Shown piece by piece: positions 1-8,735 of a DNA stretch of 64,000 nucleotides (position 1 is the stretch's first letter; the number at the start of each line of letters is the position of its first letter). A program made the translations under genes and the position numbers. The stretch spans positions 256,410-320,409 of the forward strand of contig JBMORP010000006.1 of NCBI GenBank assembly GCA_049322655.1. The letters run 5' to 3'. This DNA is from Patescibacteria group bacterium. GTDB lineage: Bacteria > Patescibacteriota > Microgenomatia > UBA1400 > PJMF01. Below the pieces are notes generated by a model, which was given only the letters and a program-made list of their open reading frames with translations, ran no database searches and was not told the origin of the DNA.

Positions 1-48
1 CGCTACTTTTTCTAGCTGAGCCACAGCATTTTGATGAGGATCATTCAT
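1..48 (-). CDS. N-terminal fragment of an unidentified CDS (MNDPHQNAVAQLEKVA...) running off the window start
   Basis: ATG at 48..46 on the minus strand, preceded by an AAGGA-like RBS; open to coordinate 1. Only 16 aa are visible, so no product call. Confidence 0.3.
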   Translation of the reverse strand, partial: MNDPHQNAVAQLEKVA

Positions 49-76
49 AAAAATTCCTTTTTTTAAACTAATACTA

Positions 77-1147
77 TTAGTTTCTACTTTCTAGCCACCT
101 CTCGGCATCCAAAGCCGCTTCACAACCCATCCCTGCAGCAGTAATTGCTTGCTTATATCTCACATCAACCACATCACCAGCCGCAAAGACTCCTTCAACC
201 GAGGTCATGGTGGGAAATTTAATCAATTGTTTTTCATCTAAAGCCTCACTAGCTTGCTCTAAACCGGCAGCAGACAAACTTTGTCTGGTAACTAAATAAC
301 CAGCCCTATCCAAATTTAATTGTCCTTGGAAAGCTTGAGTAACTGGTTTATGACCAATCGCTAAAAATACACCATCAGCAGAATAATCTTGTTCTTTACC
401 TTTAGTCTCAATGACAACTTTTTCAACTTTGTTGTCACCTTTAATTTGCTTTAAGTTTGAATTCCACAAGACAGTCACTTTTTTATTGTTTAGAACTCTA
501 TCGGCCATGATTTTACTCGCTCGAAAAGAATCTCGGCGATGAACAACTGTCACTTTGTTAGCAAATTTAGTCAAAGCCAAAGTATCTTCCATCGCACTAT
601 CGCCACCACCAATTACAAAAACGTTTTTATCACGATAAAAAGCCGCATCACAAACTGCACAGGTACTCACCCCTCGACCAAATAATTCTTTTTCCCCAGG
701 AACACCCAACTTAATAGAAGCAGCCCCAGTACTAAGAATGACTGTTTCAGCTTCAAGATCATGAGGTGTTTGTTTTACTGCTTCAATTACGGCAACTATC
801 TCTTCCTGAGAACCATTTTTAAAAACATCAATATTTTTACCATCAGGAAGGTGAGTCCAAAGTTTAAAAGGCCGCTGAGAAAAATCAAAAGCAGTTACAT
901 GAGTATCAATAATCTCTGCTCCAAACCTTAAAGCTTGAGCTCTAAGTCCCATCATAAACTTTGGGCCCATAACACCATCTGGAAAACCAGGAAAATTTTC
1001 TAGTTCAGTGGTATACATTAACTGACCACCACTTTCAACACCTGTATAAACAACTGGCTTGAGTTGAGCTCTAGCAGCATAAATTGCTGCGGTATAACCC
1101 GCTGGACCAGAGCCAACAATGACTAACTTTTCTTTTTTCATACCCAC
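77..1147 (-). CDS. trxB: thioredoxin-disulfide reductase
   Basis: N-terminal FAD-binding GSGPAGYTAA, redox-active CAVCDA, NADPH-binding GGGDSAME, and overall TrxR architecture. Confidence 0.9.
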   Translation of the reverse strand: MGMKKEKLVIVGSGPAGYTAAIYAARAQLKPVVYTGVESGGQLMYTTELENFPGFPDGVMGPKFMMGLRAQALRFGAEIIDTHVTAFDFSQRPFKLWTHLPDGKNIDVFKNGSQEEIVAVIEAVKQTPHDLEAETVILSTGAASIKLGVPGEKELFGRGVSTCAVCDAAFYRDKNVFVIGGGDSAMEDTLALTKFANKVTVVHRRDSFRASKIMADRVLNNKKVTVLWNSNLKQIKGDNKVEKVVIETKGKEQDYSADGVFLAIGHKPVTQAFQGQLNLDRAGYLVTRQSLSAAGLEQASEALDEKQLIKFPTMTSVEGVFAAGDVVDVRYKQAITAAGMGCEAALDAERWLESRN

Positions 1148-1172
1148 CTTCCTTAAAAAGATAAACTCGCTG

Positions 1173-1517
1173 TTATTTTGCTAAAACTTCATCAATCATA
1201 GCTTTGTAGCCAGCTTCTCCAGGAAAACCAATTTGTTTGGCAACAATTTTAACTTCGTCTTCATCTTTCTTAAAAACTAAAACTGTGGGAATACTCATCA
1301 CACCATATTCTTGAGCTGTAGCTGGATTTTCATCTACATTGAGTTTGGTAATCATGATTTTATCTCCATACTCATCGGCCAATTTATCAATCACTGGAGC
1401 AGCCATTTGACATGGACCACACCACTCAGCAAAAAAATCAACAAAAACTGGCTTATCTTGTTGAAGAGCAGTCTTGAAACTTTGATCATCTAAATAAGTT
1501 GCACCTTTATTGCTCAT
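1173..1517 (-). CDS. trxA: thioredoxin
   Basis: WCGPC active site in a roughly 110-aa thioredoxin fold. Lies 25 nt upstream of trxB on the same strand. Confidence 0.9.
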   Translation of the reverse strand: MSNKGATYLDDQSFKTALQQDKPVFVDFFAEWCGPCQMAAPVIDKLADEYGDKIMITKLNVDENPATAQEYGVMSIPTVLVFKKDEDEVKIVAKQIGFPGEAGYKAMIDEVLAK

Positions 1518-1607
1518 AGTTATTATTTTCTCTATTTAAGAGAAATCCTTTCTGTAAGTTTACCTAAAAATTGGTAAAGCTACTTATTACCTATTTAAGT
1601 TTCGCTA

Positions 1608-1850
1608 TTAATAACGAAACACTTCTTTTAAAACATCGTCAAGTGTATCCCACTGTTCTCCACGAGAACATTTTTTAGCCTCAGAAGTTAATAAGTCTCT
1701 AGCGACTCTACCCAATGAACTTCTAACAGCTATAACTTGACGAACAATATCTACACAAGCACGTTCGTCTTGGTACATTCTAGCAATACCCTCAATTTGG
1801 CCGTTTATCCGGTTTAGTTGAGCGACAATGGGATCTTTTTGACTTGTCAT
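1608..1850 (-). CDS. CsoR/RcnR/CstR-family (DUF156) metal- or thiol-sensing transcriptional repressor, two-Cys type
   Basis: 80 aa with the typical helical-bundle pattern (NRINGQIEGIARM...). Cys32 and Cys61 are 29 residues apart, as in the Cys pair of CstR. The position where Cu-CsoR has His (C-4) is Glu here. Confidence 0.8.
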   Translation of the reverse strand: MTSQKDPIVAQLNRINGQIEGIARMYQDERACVDIVRQVIAVRSSLGRVARDLLTSEAKKCSRGEQWDTLDDVLKEVFRY

Positions 1851-1860
1851 ATTTCCAAAT

Positions 1861-1875
1861 ATACCCCTAGGGGGT
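1861..1875. promoter_or_regulatory. CsoR-type operator, inverted repeat TACCCC-TAG-GGGGTA
   Basis: Perfect 6-3-6 palindrome 11-25 nt upstream of the csoR-like start. Nearly identical to the Bacillus subtilis CsoR operator core TACCCTACGGGGGTA. Confidence 0.55.
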
Positions 1876-1883
1876 ATATTGTG

Positions 1884-3722
1884 TCAAGTATTAACTGAAC
1901 GTAAAATTTGTTGATAGTGAGCTATTTTTTTTAATAAGTTATTAAACTCAAGTTCCTCTTGTTCGGTTTTTTCTGCTTTTCGATCAAGTTCTTTAATTTC
2001 TGCTTGGAGTAACTTAATTGATGCTCTAGCACTTTCATTTCTTAAAATCAGCCAAGTATTTAACCACTCTACCTCAAAATCAATCTGTTCTTTTAAAGAA
2101 ATAAATTTGGGATCATAAACAACATCAAAAACTAATTGTTTTAAGTCTTCAGCCAACCCTTGAGTAGCCTTTTTAAGATCCAGCTTGTTTTTAAACTCTG
2201 CTGAGGAAAAATGCTTAATTAATTCAAACAAACCTGGAGTTTGCCAAGCAAAATCATTGATTAACTTAATCTTTTCTGAAAATTTATTACTTTCAAAAAG
2301 TAGAAAAATCAAATATCTCTCTAATGATTGCCTTCTTGATGGAAGGTTTCGCTGAGTAGAAATTGGTTCTCTTGCTGACTCTAGTGGTAAATTTTGCTTA
2401 ATTTTTTGTAAATCTTGTTTAATAAGTTCTGATTTAACTTTCAAAGTTTCTGCCAATTTTTTAATATAGAAATCCTTTTCAACTGCATGAGTTATCTCCG
2501 CAAAAACTGGACCAACCTCTTTAATAATTTCTCGCTTGCCTTCTGGCCTTTCTGGATCATTTTTTCTCAGACTAAATCTTAATAAAAATTCATAGACAGA
2601 GATACTTTGGTTCTCTAATTCTCGCCATACTTTGGGTGTAGATCTAGCCAACTCGTCAACATCCTTTGCCCCACCTTCTAATGAAGACAAGTCAATCACT
2701 CTCAACTCAATATCTGTATCACCCACTACCTCAATAGCTCTCTTGGTAGCTTTAATGCCAGCCTCATCTGCATCCAAACATAACAATATTTTTTTGGCTA
2801 TTCTAGAAATAAGTTTAACTTGTTCTTGAGTCAAAGCAGAGCCCTTAATTGCCACGATATTATTAACGTGGTTCTGTGAAGAAGAAATTACATCAAACTC
2901 ACCTTCAACAACAATCACTGCCTCTTTTTTCTTAATCTCGCTTAACAACTCTTTGTAACCAAATAACATTTTAGATTTATGGTAAAGTTTGGTTTCTGGA
3001 GTGTTAATGTACTTAGCCTCTTTGGCTACTTTATCTAATAATCTACCAGAGAAACCAACCACTCTACCCCGATGATCTTTAAGGGGAAACATTACTCTCC
3101 CTCTAAAACGATCGTAGTAACGGCCACCGCGTCCTTTAATAATTAAACCTGTTTGTTCTATTTCTTCTAAAGGAAATTTTTTCTTGTGATGCAAATACTT
3201 AACTAATCCATCCCAACTAGTCATAGAATAACCCAAATTAAATAACTGAATTGATTCTTGTGAAATAGCTCTCTCTTTAAGGTATTTTCTAGCTTGCTCA
3301 CCAATAGAATGAATGGTTAATAGGTAATGGTAGTACTCTTTAGCTAAATTCAAGATAGCTAGTAAGCGTTCTCTCAACTCATCATCATTAGTTTTTTGAA
3401 ATTCTGCTAACTGAATTCCGGCCTGGTCTGCTAAATATTTAAGAGCTTCAGCAAAACTCATCGCCTCATATTTTTGTAAAAAATCCAGAGCATCGCCAGT
3501 CTCTCCACAACCAAAACAACGATAACGTTGTAACTGTTCACTTACAAAAAAAGATGGAGTTTTTTCACTATGAAAAGGACAAGGTGCTTTATAACTGGAG
3601 CCGGATCTCTGCAACTTGATTCGTTCCCCAATTACCTGAATAATATCGGTAGCATCTTTCACCTGTTGAACTTGGGACATCTTTTGTAGTATACCGTATT
3701 TTACTGAACAAACTGCATACAA
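1884..3722 (-). CDS. dnaG: DNA primase
   Basis: CHC2 zinc finger (CPFHSEKTPSF...CFGCG), Toprim region (EGEFDV...DAD), and a C-terminal helicase-interaction-like domain. Confidence 0.9.
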   Translation of the reverse strand: MYAVCSVKYGILQKMSQVQQVKDATDIIQVIGERIKLQRSGSSYKAPCPFHSEKTPSFFVSEQLQRYRCFGCGETGDALDFLQKYEAMSFAEALKYLADQAGIQLAEFQKTNDDELRERLLAILNLAKEYYHYLLTIHSIGEQARKYLKERAISQESIQLFNLGYSMTSWDGLVKYLHHKKKFPLEEIEQTGLIIKGRGGRYYDRFRGRVMFPLKDHRGRVVGFSGRLLDKVAKEAKYINTPETKLYHKSKMLFGYKELLSEIKKKEAVIVVEGEFDVISSSQNHVNNIVAIKGSALTQEQVKLISRIAKKILLCLDADEAGIKATKRAIEVVGDTDIELRVIDLSSLEGGAKDVDELARSTPKVWRELENQSISVYEFLLRFSLRKNDPERPEGKREIIKEVGPVFAEITHAVEKDFYIKKLAETLKVKSELIKQDLQKIKQNLPLESAREPISTQRNLPSRRQSLERYLIFLLFESNKFSEKIKLINDFAWQTPGLFELIKHFSSAEFKNKLDLKKATQGLAEDLKQLVFDVVYDPKFISLKEQIDFEVEWLNTWLILRNESARASIKLLQAEIKELDRKAEKTEQEELEFNNLLKKIAHYQQILRSVNT

Positions 3723-3742
3723 ACTAATCGATAAGGAAAAAA

Positions 3743-4438
3743 ATGTCTGAAGAAAAAAATCAAGCTTGGAAAAAACTAGAACAAATCACCAAATATTTCA
3801 AAAATCATATCTATAATTTCTATAAAACTCTGAACTTTGAAAATTGGGAGTTTCTACTTATTATCATGATTGGAGCCTTCAGCTTTCTGTTCTGGGAACA
3901 CCTACAACTAAAAAAAGAATTTAATAACACCAAACAAATTGCTGATATTTTACAAAAAAAATCTGGCCTCAGAGTTTACTCCAGAGATGAGCTAGAAATT
4001 AGACAAATAGGTGATGTTTACATTCAAGCACCAAAAGATTGGACTAATGTTATCCAAGACTATTTAACTACTAATGGAGTAAGGAAACACTATATTGCCT
4101 CTTTTGGTGATGGTTTTGGTATTCCCTTTTCTAACGAGTATGCTTTCGTTGTTGGAATTGAAAGAAGGGAAGTAAAAACCAATCTAGAAACTTTTTTGGA
4201 AGAGAATGAGGTTTCTAGTGATCCAGAAAAAACTAAGACTAATTACACAAAAGTTAATGATGAGATGTTTTACATCCCCAGAGATGAAGTTGGACTTGAG
4301 TATTTTAGAAAAGTCGACGATGTAGTTCTCGTTATCTTTGTTTACGATAACGGTGACCGAGAAATTGATGACTTTGAACAAAACTTTATCAATAGTGTCG
4401 GACCAGTGGAAACCAATTCTCTCTTTGATTATAAGTAA
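3743..4438 (+). CDS. hypothetical membrane-anchored protein
   Basis: 231-aa ORF with one predicted TM helix (LLIIMIGAFSFLFW). No recognisable motif. Confidence 0.45.
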   Translation: MSEEKNQAWKKLEQITKYFKNHIYNFYKTLNFENWEFLLIIMIGAFSFLFWEHLQLKKEFNNTKQIADILQKKSGLRVYSRDELEIRQIGDVYIQAPKDWTNVIQDYLTTNGVRKHYIASFGDGFGIPFSNEYAFVVGIERREVKTNLETFLEENEVSSDPEKTKTNYTKVNDEMFYIPRDEVGLEYFRKVDDVVLVIFVYDNGDREIDDFEQNFINSVGPVETNSLFDYK

Positions 4439-4652: not shown

Positions 4653-5856
4653 GTTTTCCTTTCACAACGGTAGCTCCAAACTGGCCATCAGCCACCGTAA
4701 TGGTTAAATCTTGATCTACTAATATTTGTTCAACTGATTTAATAATTTTCCCTTGGTTATTTTTTACCAAACTATAACCTTGCTTTAATTTTAGCTGAGG
4801 ATCGTTAGCCATTAATTGTTTCTCTAAAAGACTCAATTTATCCTTAAAATAAAAAATGTTTTTTTTACCATTACTAAAAATTGATTGAGAAAAATAATCA
4901 ACTCTAGTAAAAAAATACTCAAGTTTCGAAAAAAATTTATTTGTGATTTGGCCCCAGTTATAATTTAAATACTGATCTGCTTGTTTAATTAGTTTTTCCA
5001 TTGCTTGAGTCAGATGTTGAGAAAAATAATCAATTTTTTGTTCAGCTTCTCGCCAATGTTCAGAGAGAATTCTACCAGCATCGGTGGGCGTAGAGGCCCT
5101 GACATCTGCTACTAAATCAGTAATTGAGACATCCCTCTCATGCCCCACCGCTGATAAAACTGGAATTTTTGAGGCAAAAACTGCTTGGGCAACTTCTTCA
5201 GAATTAAAAGCTTGCAAGCTTTCCAAACTACCACCTCCTCTAGTCAAAACCAAAACATCCAAACCACCCTCAACAATGTTGGGATGTTCATTAAACCAGC
5301 GAATACCAGCTACAATTGAATCAATCGCATAAATTCCCTCAACCTTAATATCCCGATGAAAAACTTGAAAACCAAAATTACCCAAGTGTTTTTTTAAATC
5401 ACGAAGTGCATCACCAGTTGCAGAAGTTAGTAAACCAATTTTAATTGGAAATTCTGATAAGGTTCTTTTTCTATCTTCAGTAAAATAGCCCTTGTCAGCC
5501 AATTTTTGCTTCAAAACCTCAAATGCTTTTTGTAGAGCTCCTTCTCCCACTGGCACAATATGTTCAACAACAAAAGTTAATCTACCAGATGGTTTGTAAA
5601 TATTAGTCTTACCAAAAACTTGGACTTCAAGCCCTTCTTCCAAAACAAATGGCAACTGTTGTAACCTAAACTGCCATAAAGCACAAGATAAAACAGCCTG
5701 TTCCTTATTTTTTCCATCACTCAAAGAAAAATAAGCATGCTTTCTAAAACTCACTGAGGTTATTTCTCCTTGAATAACCATCTCAATGTTAGCCAACTGC
5801 TCGTTGAGTAAATCTAAATAATCATTAACAGAATAAACTTTAGGTGTGAGTTTCAC
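4642..5856 (-). CDS. xseA: exodeoxyribonuclease VII large subunit
   Basis: 404 aa with an N-terminal OB-fold region and a central catalytic region (GGGSLE). Paired with xseB. Confidence 0.88.
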   Translation of the reverse strand: MKLTPKVYSVNDYLDLLNEQLANIEMVIQGEITSVSFRKHAYFSLSDGKNKEQAVLSCALWQFRLQQLPFVLEEGLEVQVFGKTNIYKPSGRLTFVVEHIVPVGEGALQKAFEVLKQKLADKGYFTEDRKRTLSEFPIKIGLLTSATGDALRDLKKHLGNFGFQVFHRDIKVEGIYAIDSIVAGIRWFNEHPNIVEGGLDVLVLTRGGGSLESLQAFNSEEVAQAVFASKIPVLSAVGHERDVSITDLVADVRASTPTDAGRILSEHWREAEQKIDYFSQHLTQAMEKLIKQADQYLNYNWGQITNKFFSKLEYFFTRVDYFSQSIFSNGKKNIFYFKDKLSLLEKQLMANDPQLKLKQGYSLVKNNQGKIIKSVEQILVDQDLTITVADGQFGATVVKGKHDN

Positions 5857-6289
5857 TAGTAATCACCATTTTTTTATTAACTAAAAACCAAACAATCCCA
5901 GCTACCAACATGCTGGCAACGGTACCCCAAATAATATCAACAATTACTACTTGTTGTGACCAATTTTTCAAGGTTGCCCAATTACTTAAATCATAGGTAG
6001 CATAAGCCCCAAAACCATACAAGGCTGTATTGAGTAGTAACTCTCTTAAAGATTTGGCTTTAGCAAAACCCCAAAACCATAACATTAGAGGATGAAGGGC
6101 ATAAAATATCAACCCAGGAAATAATAAAAAGTCATCTCTCAATAAATCCCCCAATTCTGCAAAATAAAAATTTTTGGCCACCACACCCAGCCAGATTCCA
6201 TCTATTAAGCCAAAAACAGCCAATAGTAACAAATAAGTAATAATAAAGTTGTGCAAGCTATTAATCTTCATAACCCTATTGTAAACCAA
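5840..6289 (-). CDS. small integral membrane protein (DUF2177-like)
   Basis: 149 aa with four predicted TM helices. Overlaps the xseA start by 17 nt. Confidence 0.45.
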   Translation of the reverse strand: MVYNRVMKINSLHNFIITYLLLLAVFGLIDGIWLGVVAKNFYFAELGDLLRDDFLLFPGLIFYALHPLMLWFWGFAKAKSLRELLLNTALYGFGAYATYDLSNWATLKNWSQQVVIVDIIWGTVASMLVAGIVWFLVNKKMVITSETHT

Positions 6290-6317
6290 GCTAGCAAATC
6301 TCCAACTAACTATTTTT

Positions 6318-8735
6318 TTACCTTAGTTGAGGTTGTAAATGATAGTAAGGTGGAGAATTTTGGTAGCGCTTAATCGCCAAAGAAATAATCTCTTCCAAGA
6401 AGTCACCATAATCCATCCCTGTTAGTTTGGCCACTGAAGGCAGACAATCTGGTTCGTTGATTGAAGGATTAGGATTAAGCTCCAACACGTGAGGATTACC
6501 CTGTTCATCTAGTTTTATTTCCACTCTGCCATAATCATGACAGTCAAGGATAGAGTAAGTATCCATGGCCATTTCTGTAATTAAAGAAATCAATTTTTTA
6601 CTTACTCCTTTAGGTGGTCTCTCCTCTGTAATAAAGTTTTTAAAATCACTATGGTTACCAAACTTAGAATCGAAAGAATAAATATTCCACATTCCTTTTG
6701 GCATTTTATTAAATTGGGTTCTAGATAGAGGCAGGACTCTCAATTCATCACCATTGCCAATAATAGAAACATCATACTCATCTCCTGGTAAATATTCTTC
6801 TATCAAAGCTGGGGATCTTAATTCTTCTAGAACATATTTAATTTGACGTTTCAATTCTTGTTGATTTCTTACGACTGAATCTTGGTTAATCCCAATTGAG
6901 TTATCAGTAGTAGCTGGTTTCACGATTAAAGGAAAAACTAAATCATCTCTAATTTCGTCTTGCAAAGTAAAAGCATAATCCCACTTAGCCGTCGGAATTT
7001 GGTGATAAGTGAGTAGTTTTTTTACTTTAATTTTGTCAATCGCCAAACTCAAAGTAAATGGATTAGAACCGGTATATGGAATTTGATAAGCATCAAAAAA
7101 CGAAGCTACATGAGGCTCTAACAAGCTAGAGCCGTTAATTCTCTCAGCCACATTAAATATCAAATCAATTTTTTGTGACTGCATCATGTTAGAGGCAGTT
7201 TTTAAATCGTTAAAGTCAATAAATGAAGTTTTATAACCTCTTGTTTCCAAGGTGTTTCGAATTTTATTGCCTACTGAAGTCAACTCTGCTTCTATTGCAC
7301 CATCAGCTCCAGAAAAAGTATTGCAAGCAATTGCCAGATGAAGTTTTCTTTGCTCTGAAAGTTTAACTCGTCTAATTTTTTCGATTCTAGCTTGACCAGC
7401 CATAATTCTTTGATCAAACTTAGCCACAGAAAAACGATTAGCTCTCTTGGTTTTCCCTACAGCAGAAACCTCAGAGAAAGGAATAATTTCATAATTAATT
7501 TTTTCTAAAACTTTTTCCAGATTTTCCCTAGAATCATTAGGATTTTCTCCTTTAGTAGTAATCCAACCCAAAAATTCATAAGCAGCCGGAGGAACAAAAA
7601 CAGTATCTCCAACTTCTTTATAGAACTCAAACTCATCTACTTGGTCTTTAGCCGAAAATTTTTCAGGAATATCGAGACTTGAAATTACTCCAGAATTTTC
7701 TGGAATAAAAGAGGTTCCAGTTAAATAAACCGCTGGTTCTTCTGGCTTATCAATTCTTGGAAAATACTCTCCCAACGCAATCTTGACTGCATACTCAATT
7801 AAGTCAACTTTCCAAGCTTGTTTGGAAAAAGAATAAACTTCATCACCACCCATTCTTAGATTAACTTCAATAGGAACTGGACCAGTCGAAGTTTGCTTAG
7901 CTTCAAAATGAATACAACCATTGGTAATCCCCAAATGTTCCAAAACTGATTCTGCCATATCGACCAACTCTTTTTGATCTTCTTCTGGTAAAGCCGAAGG
8001 AATAGCCATTCCACTTTCCATAAAATATGGTTCTTCAGTTTTATAGTTATCAGTAATTGACCAATATTTAATTTTTCCATTCTGCAGTAAGATATCGATG
8101 TCAACTTCATCTCCATCAATATATTCTTCGATCATCACTTCCAAACCATCAGTTAAAGCTGATTCAACTTGAGTGTTAATATTTCTTTTCAAAAACTCAT
8201 AAACTTCAAAAGCCTCTTCTTGATCTTCTGCCTTAATCACAAACGCACTACTGGAACCAAAAGTTGGCTTAAAAACAACAGGTAATTTTAAAGTTTTTAA
8301 GATCTCTTTTAACTCGTCATCTGATTTAACCAAAGAATAATTTGGAGCAGGCAAATTGTGTTTTCTACAAAACTCACGGAAAGCAAATTTATTTCTGGCT
8401 TTAGAGGCAACCTTCCAAGAAATTCCTGGTTTTTTTAAGATTTCACTTAATTTGGCGGTCAACAAGACATCATCTTCCCAAAAAGTGACTACTCCATCAA
8501 CTTGGTTTTTCTTGGCATATTCGGTGATAGCTCTAATCGTAGCATCATGATTGGTGGTATCAACCAAAATCCAGTCATCAACATAGTTCTCTGCCCAGTT
8601 TTTTTGAGCATTAACCACAACTTTTTTTAGATTGGGAATCTTGGCAATTCTTTGGAGAATAAAACGTTTTTTAAGTGAACCAGTATTGACAATAAGGAGA
8701 GTTTTTTGATTTTTTAATGTTGATTTTTCTTGCAT
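6318..8735 (-). CDS. tandem ATP-grasp ligase: N-terminal carboxylate-amine/L-amino-acid-ligase-like domain fused to a C-terminal D-Ala-D-Ala-ligase-like domain
   Basis: One continuous 805-aa ORF. Residues roughly 1-330 carry a pre-ATP-grasp domain plus an ATP-grasp (LPVVFKP..GSSSAFV..MIEEYIDGDEVDID). Residues roughly 480-800 are Ddl-like (LVFPLIVKPATTDNSIGI...LIEEYLPGDEYDVSIIGNG...LELNPNPS). Confidence 0.75.
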   Translation of the reverse strand: MQEKSTLKNQKTLLIVNTGSLKKRFILQRIAKIPNLKKVVVNAQKNWAENYVDDWILVDTTNHDATIRAITEYAKKNQVDGVVTFWEDDVLLTAKLSEILKKPGISWKVASKARNKFAFREFCRKHNLPAPNYSLVKSDDELKEILKTLKLPVVFKPTFGSSSAFVIKAEDQEEAFEVYEFLKRNINTQVESALTDGLEVMIEEYIDGDEVDIDILLQNGKIKYWSITDNYKTEEPYFMESGMAIPSALPEEDQKELVDMAESVLEHLGITNGCIHFEAKQTSTGPVPIEVNLRMGGDEVYSFSKQAWKVDLIEYAVKIALGEYFPRIDKPEEPAVYLTGTSFIPENSGVISSLDIPEKFSAKDQVDEFEFYKEVGDTVFVPPAAYEFLGWITTKGENPNDSRENLEKVLEKINYEIIPFSEVSAVGKTKRANRFSVAKFDQRIMAGQARIEKIRRVKLSEQRKLHLAIACNTFSGADGAIEAELTSVGNKIRNTLETRGYKTSFIDFNDLKTASNMMQSQKIDLIFNVAERINGSSLLEPHVASFFDAYQIPYTGSNPFTLSLAIDKIKVKKLLTYHQIPTAKWDYAFTLQDEIRDDLVFPLIVKPATTDNSIGINQDSVVRNQQELKRQIKYVLEELRSPALIEEYLPGDEYDVSIIGNGDELRVLPLSRTQFNKMPKGMWNIYSFDSKFGNHSDFKNFITEERPPKGVSKKLISLITEMAMDTYSILDCHDYGRVEIKLDEQGNPHVLELNPNPSINEPDCLPSVAKLTGMDYGDFLEEIISLAIKRYQNSPPYYHLQPQLR

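Follow-up and report, generated by a model that had tools for sequence, protein, structure and literature searches.

A Cys-Glu-Cys regulator of the CsoR family predicted to control thioredoxin genes in Patescibacteria

Introduction

What does a regulator of the CsoR family respond to, and which genes does it control, when it contains no histidine at all and is encoded directly ahead of genes for a thioredoxin and a thioredoxin reductase? The question is raised by a locus at one end of a 64,000-nucleotide (nt) stretch of DNA from a Patescibacteria group bacterium (NCBI GenBank assembly GCA_049322655.1, contig JBMORP010000006.1, positions 256,410 to 320,409 of the forward strand), which is called ‘the window’ here, at its full length, and has a G+C content of ~35%. 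Patescibacteria possess very few regulators, hardly any of them with an assigned target.

A network analysis of 32,476 CsoR family members distinguished sensors of Cu, Ni/Co, formaldehyde, and persulfide (the last being CstR, in clusters 4 and 10), with clusters 6–9 uncharacterised (PMC8643695), and a 2024 review gives the same inducer set. The word ‘thioredoxin’ is absent from the main text of the network analysis, and the open-access literature yielded no account, from Patescibacteria or elsewhere, of a regulator of this family that is wired to trxA and trxB, which is absence of evidence only. The protein described here thus represents a conserved and apparently undescribed x-C-E-C variant (the residues at positions W, X, Y, and Z) within a known family of regulators, and its predicted regulon is new. 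We consider it likely that it acts as an autoregulated dithiol-switch repressor of a transcript that carries its own gene, trxA, trxB, and probably a following glutamate dehydrogenase gene (gdh). An earlier inspection of the window, referred to here as the sequence-only reading, had suggested a CstR-like repressor at the head of a thioredoxin operon; the analysis below takes up that suggestion.

The regulator and its ligand positions

The regulator gene lies at positions 1608..1850 of the window on the minus strand, as do its neighbours from dnaG through trxA and trxB to the start of gdh. Its 80-aa product belongs to Pfam family PF02583 (Trns_repr_metal, formerly DUF156; E=3e-18, 66 bits against a cutoff of 22.8), and its only cysteines are C32 and C61, 29 residues apart; there is no His. 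In these respects the sequence-only reading was borne out. An AlphaFold monomer model of the protein is all-helical (predicted local distance difference test score 86.6), as expected in a superfamily of helical proteins of ~80–100 aa. Public databases label the protein ‘metal-sensitive transcriptional regulator’, and an identical protein is present in a Patescibacteria metagenome-assembled genome (MAG). An NCBIfam scan returned no equivalog at its cutoff, with RicR, FrmR, and RcnR matched only far below theirs (RcnR with 23.9 bits against 138; FrmR with 26.8 against 133).

Among solved structures, those of CsoR, CstR, and InrS match it best (E=5e-9 to 8e-8), with Streptococcus pneumoniae CstR ~39% identical over the aligned region. 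Gap-free HMMER alignments to Geobacillus CsoR (4m1p), Mycobacterium tuberculosis CsoR (2hh7), InrS (5fmn), and S. pneumoniae CstR (7mq1) place C32 at position X, E57 at Y, and C61 at Z. The Y residue is His in the three metal sensors (4m1p and 2hh7 for Cu, 5fmn for Ni) and Asn in CstR. The regulator has Thr at residue 2, a variable position among relatives; no N-terminal His or Pro is conserved at W, and the N-termini vary.

The X-Y-Z triad is a property of the family rather than of one protein, being C-E-C in 169 of 181 family sequences. Glu occupies Y in these 169 and Ala in 7, and within the close family Y is never His (0/181) nor Asn. Both the X and the Z cysteine are kept in all sequences that span the two positions (180/180), and 142 of the 181 cores contain no His whatsoever.

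The operator and its promoter

A perfect inverted repeat, AATATACCCC-TAG-GGGGTATATT, with arms that are 100% complementary (10+3+10), occupies positions 1858..1880 ahead of the regulator gene. Its core, TACCCCNNNGGGGTA, at 1862..1876 has the form TAC-N9-GTA with C4/G4 tracts and lies 11 to 25 nt upstream of the regulator ATG at 1850. The sequence-only reading had placed the palindrome correctly; the full repeat is longer than it had noted. The core occurs once in the 64 kb of the window and in none of 100 dinucleotide-preserving shuffles. A mismatch-tolerant search likewise found no extra operator copies in the window, a result of little weight alone since ~0.9 matches at ≤3 mismatches are expected by chance.

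Read on the minus strand, the core becomes TACCCCCTAGGGGTA, which is identical to two Streptomyces lividans copZA operators bound by CsoR and fits the Streptomyces consensus ATATACCCCTNAGGGGTATAT (PMC3902906). At the cst genes of Streptococcus mitis, CstR binds ATATACCCTTATGGGGTATAT, an operator of this type that is close to the window operator (PMC8643695). The resemblance to a CsoR operator, which the sequence-only reading had drawn with that of Bacillus subtilis, is thus substantiated for S. lividans, and the site has the features of a canonical type-2 CsoR/CstR operator, which argues for DNA binding by a CsoR-family protein. Because this core is common to CsoR and CstR operators, it is uninformative about the inducer.

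The operator sits within a sigma-70-like promoter on the minus strand (1858..1887), which matches the consensus at 11 of 12 positions and is the best match in the first 4 kb of the window. Its -35 element, TTGACA (1887..1882), and its -10 element, TATATT (1863..1858), are separated by an 18-nt spacer that is occupied by the palindrome, the right arm of which supplies the -10 hexamer. The regulator ATG follows only 7 nt past the -10 hexamer, and the transcript is therefore probably leaderless.

The -35 element also contains the stop codon (TGA, 1886..1884) of dnaG, the upstream neighbour that encodes DNA primase (1884..3722, minus strand; TIGR01391, E=4e-126) and is regarded as context rather than as part of the redox unit. 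With no terminator after dnaG, transcription reading through from that gene would meet the bound repressor as a roadblock.

Gene order in the window

The two thioredoxin genes follow the regulator on the same strand, as the sequence-only reading had described, at gaps of 90 nt (regulator to trxA) and 31 nt (trxA to the trxB ATG at 1141), and a further 28 nt separate trxB from gdh. The product of trxA (1173..1517, minus strand), a 114-aa thioredoxin with a WCGPC active site, scores 111 bits with TIGR01068 (cutoff 96.8) and also matches Pfam PF00085. The product of trxB (77..1141, minus strand), a thioredoxin-disulfide reductase of 354 aa, scores 354.6 bits with TIGR01292 (cutoff 343.45) and contains a CAVC redox centre and the NADPH-type motif HRRDSFRAS. 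The open reading frame (ORF) listing starts trxB at a GTG at 1147; the ATG at 1141, which is preceded by AAGGAAGGTGG, is the likelier start. In the near-identical relative L001, trxB begins at a TTG corresponding to 1149, 23 nt after trxA, and the additional 8 nt to ATG 1141 account for the 31 nt given here. TrxB is longer than both the 300-position TIGR01292 model and the 321-position E. coli-type model, each of which matches it in two separate stretches, and this pattern suggests lineage-specific insertions. Of gdh, only the 5′ end (1..48, minus strand) lies in the window before the gene runs off its edge; gdh is probably the last gene of the unit that begins with the regulator, and L001 has it at full length (5801-7090; Pfam ELFV_dehydrog).

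Consensus scans found no minus-strand promoter of at least 9/12 matches in the regulator-trxA gap (1518..1607) and no minus-strand, i.e. coding-strand, terminator match in 77..1883. The 90-nt gap does contain three small hairpins (fold z-score -2.83), the first of which covers the regulator stop codon and none of which is followed by a U-run. An Rfam scan of positions 1..4000 returned only two sub-threshold matches to eukaryotic snoRNA/scaRNA families, which were taken as chance.

Conservation among close relatives

A scan that retained one genome per species yielded 62 related loci, each of up to ~8.2 kb and nearly all from Patescibacteria MAGs (Pacebacteria, Woesebacteria, and unclassified), with regulators that are 43–100% identical to the window protein. 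In every locus with enough downstream DNA (59/59), trxA and then trxB follow the regulator on its own strand. The median gaps are 49 nt between regulator and trxA (minimum 12) and 32 nt between trxA and trxB. In 18 loci the former gap measures ≤30 nt, which leaves no room for a separate trxA promoter.

The operator is as constant as the gene order. TACCC-N5-GGGTA, with one mismatch at most, stands exactly once upstream of the regulator in 62/62 loci and is exact in 58, while all 62 loci together contain only three other such sites, each one mismatch away. The A and T on either side vary little or not at all (ATACCC-N5-GGGTAT). TTGACA (≤1 mismatch) precedes the operator in 51 loci and the right arm begins a -10-like hexamer in 51; the complete TTGACA-operator-(-10) layout is kept in 51/62. 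Conservation of the operator is shown independently by database entries in which mis-called N-terminal extensions of the regulator (YTPRGY, IPLGGI, YPQGVY) are simply the translated operator.

In about half of the 62 loci, the regulator ATG lies 6–9 nt past the -10 hexamer, and no Shine-Dalgarno sequence fits between the two, a spacing that suggests that the first operon gene is translated without a leader.

In 43 of 61 loci, the gene downstream of trxB, on the same strand and after a short gap, encodes glutamate dehydrogenase (GDH; 36 loci) or malic enzyme (7 loci). An example of such a dehydrogenase gene is found at 6617-7822 of L011. Since TrxB carries an NADPH-type motif and the gene after it encodes an NAD(P)H-producing dehydrogenase, the operon may bring its own NADPH supply. 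Upstream, dnaG was found in 57 of the 62 loci, up to ~1.2 kb away in a few, and was not found in the other five.

Two further observations concern individual entries. In one patescibacterial MAG (L035, 4235-5803), TrxA and TrxB homology are combined in a single ORF, an apparent fusion. Many MAG entries with the locus (L001, L004, L006, L008-L014, and others) are labelled ‘uncultured Pseudomonadales bacterium’, and one 1.4-Mb contig ‘Vitreimonas sp.’; these labels are probably taxonomic mistakes.

Distant relatives with Glu at Y

A profile search over 1.84 billion representative proteins shows that proteins with Glu at Y form a graded clade, with scores between 142 and ~60 bits; at the lower end, ordinary C-H-C CsoRs start to dominate. 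Gene neighbourhoods were obtained for eight members that are 30–46% identical to the window protein. In none of them is dnaG directly upstream (0/8). Their upstream genes, among them SfLAP, radical-SAM, DUF488, AAA kinase, Zip transporter, and methyltransferase genes, are mostly unrelated, with a few recurring between pairs of loci. A thioredoxin-family gene nevertheless adjoins the regulator, or lies one gene past it, in 8/8. Thioredoxin linkage thus survives the change of flanking genes, which dnaG linkage does not, and so reflects more than inherited gene order.

Six of the eight loci have the order regulator-trxA-trxB, followed by genes for GDH (three loci), DsbA-like proteins (in one case after GDH), NUDIX, or ferredoxin. 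In the remaining two, the order is regulator-trxA-groES-groEL in one, and regulator, CcdA/DsbD membrane protein, and thioredoxin-like protein in the other, the latter output possibly being an extracytoplasmic reducing pathway. Variant outputs of the clade are seen at 3501-6234 of L073 and 3501-5043 of L074.

All eight distant regulators also have a CsoR- or RcnR-type operator directly upstream (8/8), several of them of type 1 (TACT, a G/C tract, and AGTA). Operators of the form ATACT-G/C tract-AGTAT are seen in L063, L064, L065, L073, L075, and L076, ~10–40 nt upstream of position 3501. Because these type-1 operators occur in the same clade with the same downstream genes, the operator type must have switched within the clade. 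The earlier proposal of a CsoR-family repressor heading and controlling a trxA-trxB operon accordingly finds support in the 62/62 operators, the 59/59 gene orders, and the thioredoxin link of these eight relatives, which together point to control of the thioredoxin genes.

The cysteines themselves are less constant at this distance. In P0343, P0309, P0160, and P0163 (ESC..L) the second Cys has moved to Y+2, and in P0135, P0140, and P0142 the X Cys is lost and a CxxxxC pair stands at the start of helix 3; in both groups the Glu is retained. Such drift of the second Cys fits thiol chemistry better than the fixed geometry of metal coordination. Two Bacillota proteins (P0352 and P0356) retrieved by the profile search that had been considered as members of the clade outside the candidate phyla radiation were rejected, as they are ordinary C-H-C CsoRs without trx neighbours.

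Proposed mechanism

These features can be joined into a predicted regulatory cycle. The regulator in its reduced, dithiol form would bind the repeat at 1858..1880, most likely as tetramers like other family members. As the palindrome lies between the -35 and -10 elements and overlaps the latter, binding would silence the transcript, which is probably leaderless and would include the regulator, trxA, trxB, and probably gdh. Thiol-oxidising stress, for which disulfide stress, peroxide-derived oxidants, and per- or polysulfides are candidates, would crosslink Cys32 to Cys61′ of the partner protomer; the crosslinked regulator would come off its operator, with induction of the thioredoxin system as the result. 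Drawing on NADPH, the induced thioredoxin and its reductase would then reduce the crosslink and bring repression back, closing a homeostatic feedback loop. This reset would be a natural one, because the output of the operon is the disulfide and persulfide reductase of the cell.

A direct precedent for the switch is CstR, whose operator binding is lost reversibly when persulfides, and also simple oxidants such as tetrathionate, crosslink the X and Z′ cysteines (PMC8643695). Thiol chemistry is preferred here over metal coordination because most members of the family lack His, no N-terminal ligand is conserved, and the second Cys drifts while the Glu stays.

Several points weigh against this proposal. 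The 62 close loci represent one lineage, and their synteny may partly be plain inheritance, a concern that the distant relatives lessen but do not fully remove. Co-transcription of the regulator with trxA and trxB is inferred from short gaps and the lack of canonical terminators and promoters, and the structured 90-nt gap (z = -2.83) could hide a weak promoter or an attenuator. Glu57 is a conceivable ligand for harder metals, so that a Cys2-Glu site could form a metal-dependent switch. Finally, a Foldseek search of the PDB with the AlphaFold monomer model adds nothing usable: CstR, CsoR, and InrS came out at the top, but all with E of at least 0.1 and a root-mean-square deviation >13 Å. A monomer model collapses this fold, which only the tetramer has.

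Alternative explanations

The strongest alternative is that the regulator is a persulfide-specific, CstR-like sensor, with a dithiol selective for sulfane sulfur that forms di-, tri-, or tetrasulfide bridges, and that the thioredoxin system is induced as a persulfide reductase where other low-molecular-weight-thiol systems are absent. We regard this as possible though rather doubtful. The CstRs of Staphylococcus aureus, Enterococcus faecalis, S. pneumoniae, and S. mitis share the Pfam family, a similar size, the two cysteines at X and Z 29 residues apart, the lack of His at Y, and a type-2 operator (ATATACCC..GGGGTATAT), and they are repressors released by thiol crosslinking; the His-free x-C-x-C arrangement of the window protein matches theirs, and CstR is one of its closest solved relatives. 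The chemistry of CstR is documented (PMC8643695), and two further papers report that S. aureus thioredoxin-like proteins reduce protein persulfides (PMC6196236) and that the trx and grx genes of E. coli are induced by sulfane sulfur via OxyR (PMC6831875).

Against this, two features that accompany CstR are missing. The wedge Asn that CstR has at Y (x-C-N-C; PMC11672702, PMC8643695) is replaced by a near-invariant Glu. CstR controls genes for rhodanese, persulfide dioxygenase, SQR, and CoA-persulfide reductase, whereas the predicted targets here are trxA and trxB (plus gdh); none of those four genes lies by the regulator in the window locus or the eight distant loci, which were the loci screened, and the first ORF past trxB, the only one classified in the 62 close loci, belongs to no sulfide-detoxification class. 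Identity to CstR is also no higher than ~39% over the aligned part, and the lineages differ (Firmicutes for CstR, Patescibacteria here). The assignment to the ‘CstR type’ by the sequence-only reading therefore holds for the cysteines at X and Z without His, but not for the residue at Y or for the neighbouring genes. Moreover, since CstRs also react with plain oxidants, specificity for persulfide cannot be read from sequence.

A metal sensor is improbable. Here, Cys32, Glu57, and Cys61 would bind Cu(I) through the thiolates or else, with the Glu assisting, a harder ion, for example Zn(II), Ni(II), or Fe(II), and either binding or, as in zinc-thiolate switches, loss of the metal on oxidation would derepress the operon. 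Most characterised members of the family do sense metals through X, Y, and Z (PMC8643695, PMC11672702), the potential ligand Glu is nearly invariant, and the database annotation names a metal; the sequence-only reading was right that the His used by Cu-sensing CsoR is absent, although with Glu57 it is less than certain that Y lacks a ligand altogether. However, the missing His is the Cu(I) ligand on which allostery depends, and CstR, while able to bind Cu(I), shows no response (PMC8643695). No N-terminal His or Pro is conserved at W either, the second Cys changes place among relatives that keep the Glu, and the conserved neighbours are redox enzymes. No copA, copZ, or rcnA-type gene lies by the regulator in the window locus or the eight distant loci, to which the screen was confined.

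Identity with particular metal or aldehyde sensors can be rejected more firmly. The Cu(I)-sensing CsoRs of M. tuberculosis, Bacillus subtilis, S. lividans, and Geobacillus resemble the regulator in fold family, in autoregulation through an operator placed over the promoter, and, for S. lividans, in the copZA operator core. They differ in having C-H-C instead of C-E-C and a second-shell Tyr before Cys X, which is absent here, where the position is variable. A Cu-sensing CsoR is ruled out by the absent His at Y, and the loci examined for gene content contain no cop genes; the neighbours identified in the 62 close loci, where no cop-directed search was made, are dnaG, trxA, trxB, and gdh or the malic enzyme gene. 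RcnR, InrS, and FrmR are ruled out by the missing W and Y ligands, and for RcnR and FrmR also by NCBIfam scores far below cutoff (24–27 against 133–138 bits). RcnR and FrmR share the fold, and RcnR-like type-1 operators occur among the distant Glu-at-Y relatives, but at W the window protein lacks both His3 and Pro2, and neither its Y nor its Z residue is His. It is thus at odds with the H-C-H-H or H-C-H-C motif of RcnR and InrS, with its N-terminal His, and, having Thr2 and Glu57, with the P-C-H-x motif of FrmR (Pro2, His at Y).

That the regulator controls only itself or distant targets, with trxA and trxB adjacent by inherited order and served by an unregulated promoter of their own, has little probability: the single operator copy ahead of the regulator itself, the structured 90-nt gap, and the common lineage of the close loci would fit it, but regulator-trxA gaps of 12–30 nt in 18 loci, the lack of promoter-like matches in the gap and of coding-strand terminator-like matches across the unit, and a thioredoxin linkage that, unlike that of dnaG, outlives the replacement of flanking genes in eight distant relatives all speak against it.

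Implications for Patescibacteria and the CsoR family

The preferred reading, a dithiol-switch repressor reset by the thioredoxin system under its control, has functional counterparts elsewhere. RsrA-SigR, which acts on trxBA in Streptomyces, Spx in Bacillus, and OxyR, which acts on grxA and trxC in E. coli, are all systems in which a thiol sensor induces a thioredoxin or glutaredoxin system and is re-reduced by the product in a feedback loop. The proteins belong to unrelated families and work by unrelated mechanisms: RsrA is a zinc anti-sigma factor, Spx an ArsC-like protein that binds RNA polymerase, and OxyR a LysR-type activator, whereas the regulator described here is predicted to be a direct repressor acting in cis on its own operon.

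More tentatively, and with somewhat less than even confidence, we propose that the CsoR superfamily has a fifth functional class in the x-C-E-C clade, that of a general thiol-redox (disulfide-stress) sensor re-reduced by the thioredoxin that it controls. It would then be the principal redox-homeostasis regulator of Microgenomates-type Patescibacteria and belong to a self-contained module in which sensor, thioredoxin, and thioredoxin reductase are joined by a dehydrogenase (GDH or malic enzyme) that regenerates NADPH.

With parts as small as an 80-aa protein and a 23-bp site, the proposal is open to test in vitro or in a heterologous host, and the organism need not be cultured. If it is true, the CsoR family, so far credited with four inducer classes, would gain a new output and probably also a new inducer logic through a C-E-C clade wired to thioredoxin genes, and Patescibacteria would have their first concrete, testable transcriptional circuit for redox homeostasis.

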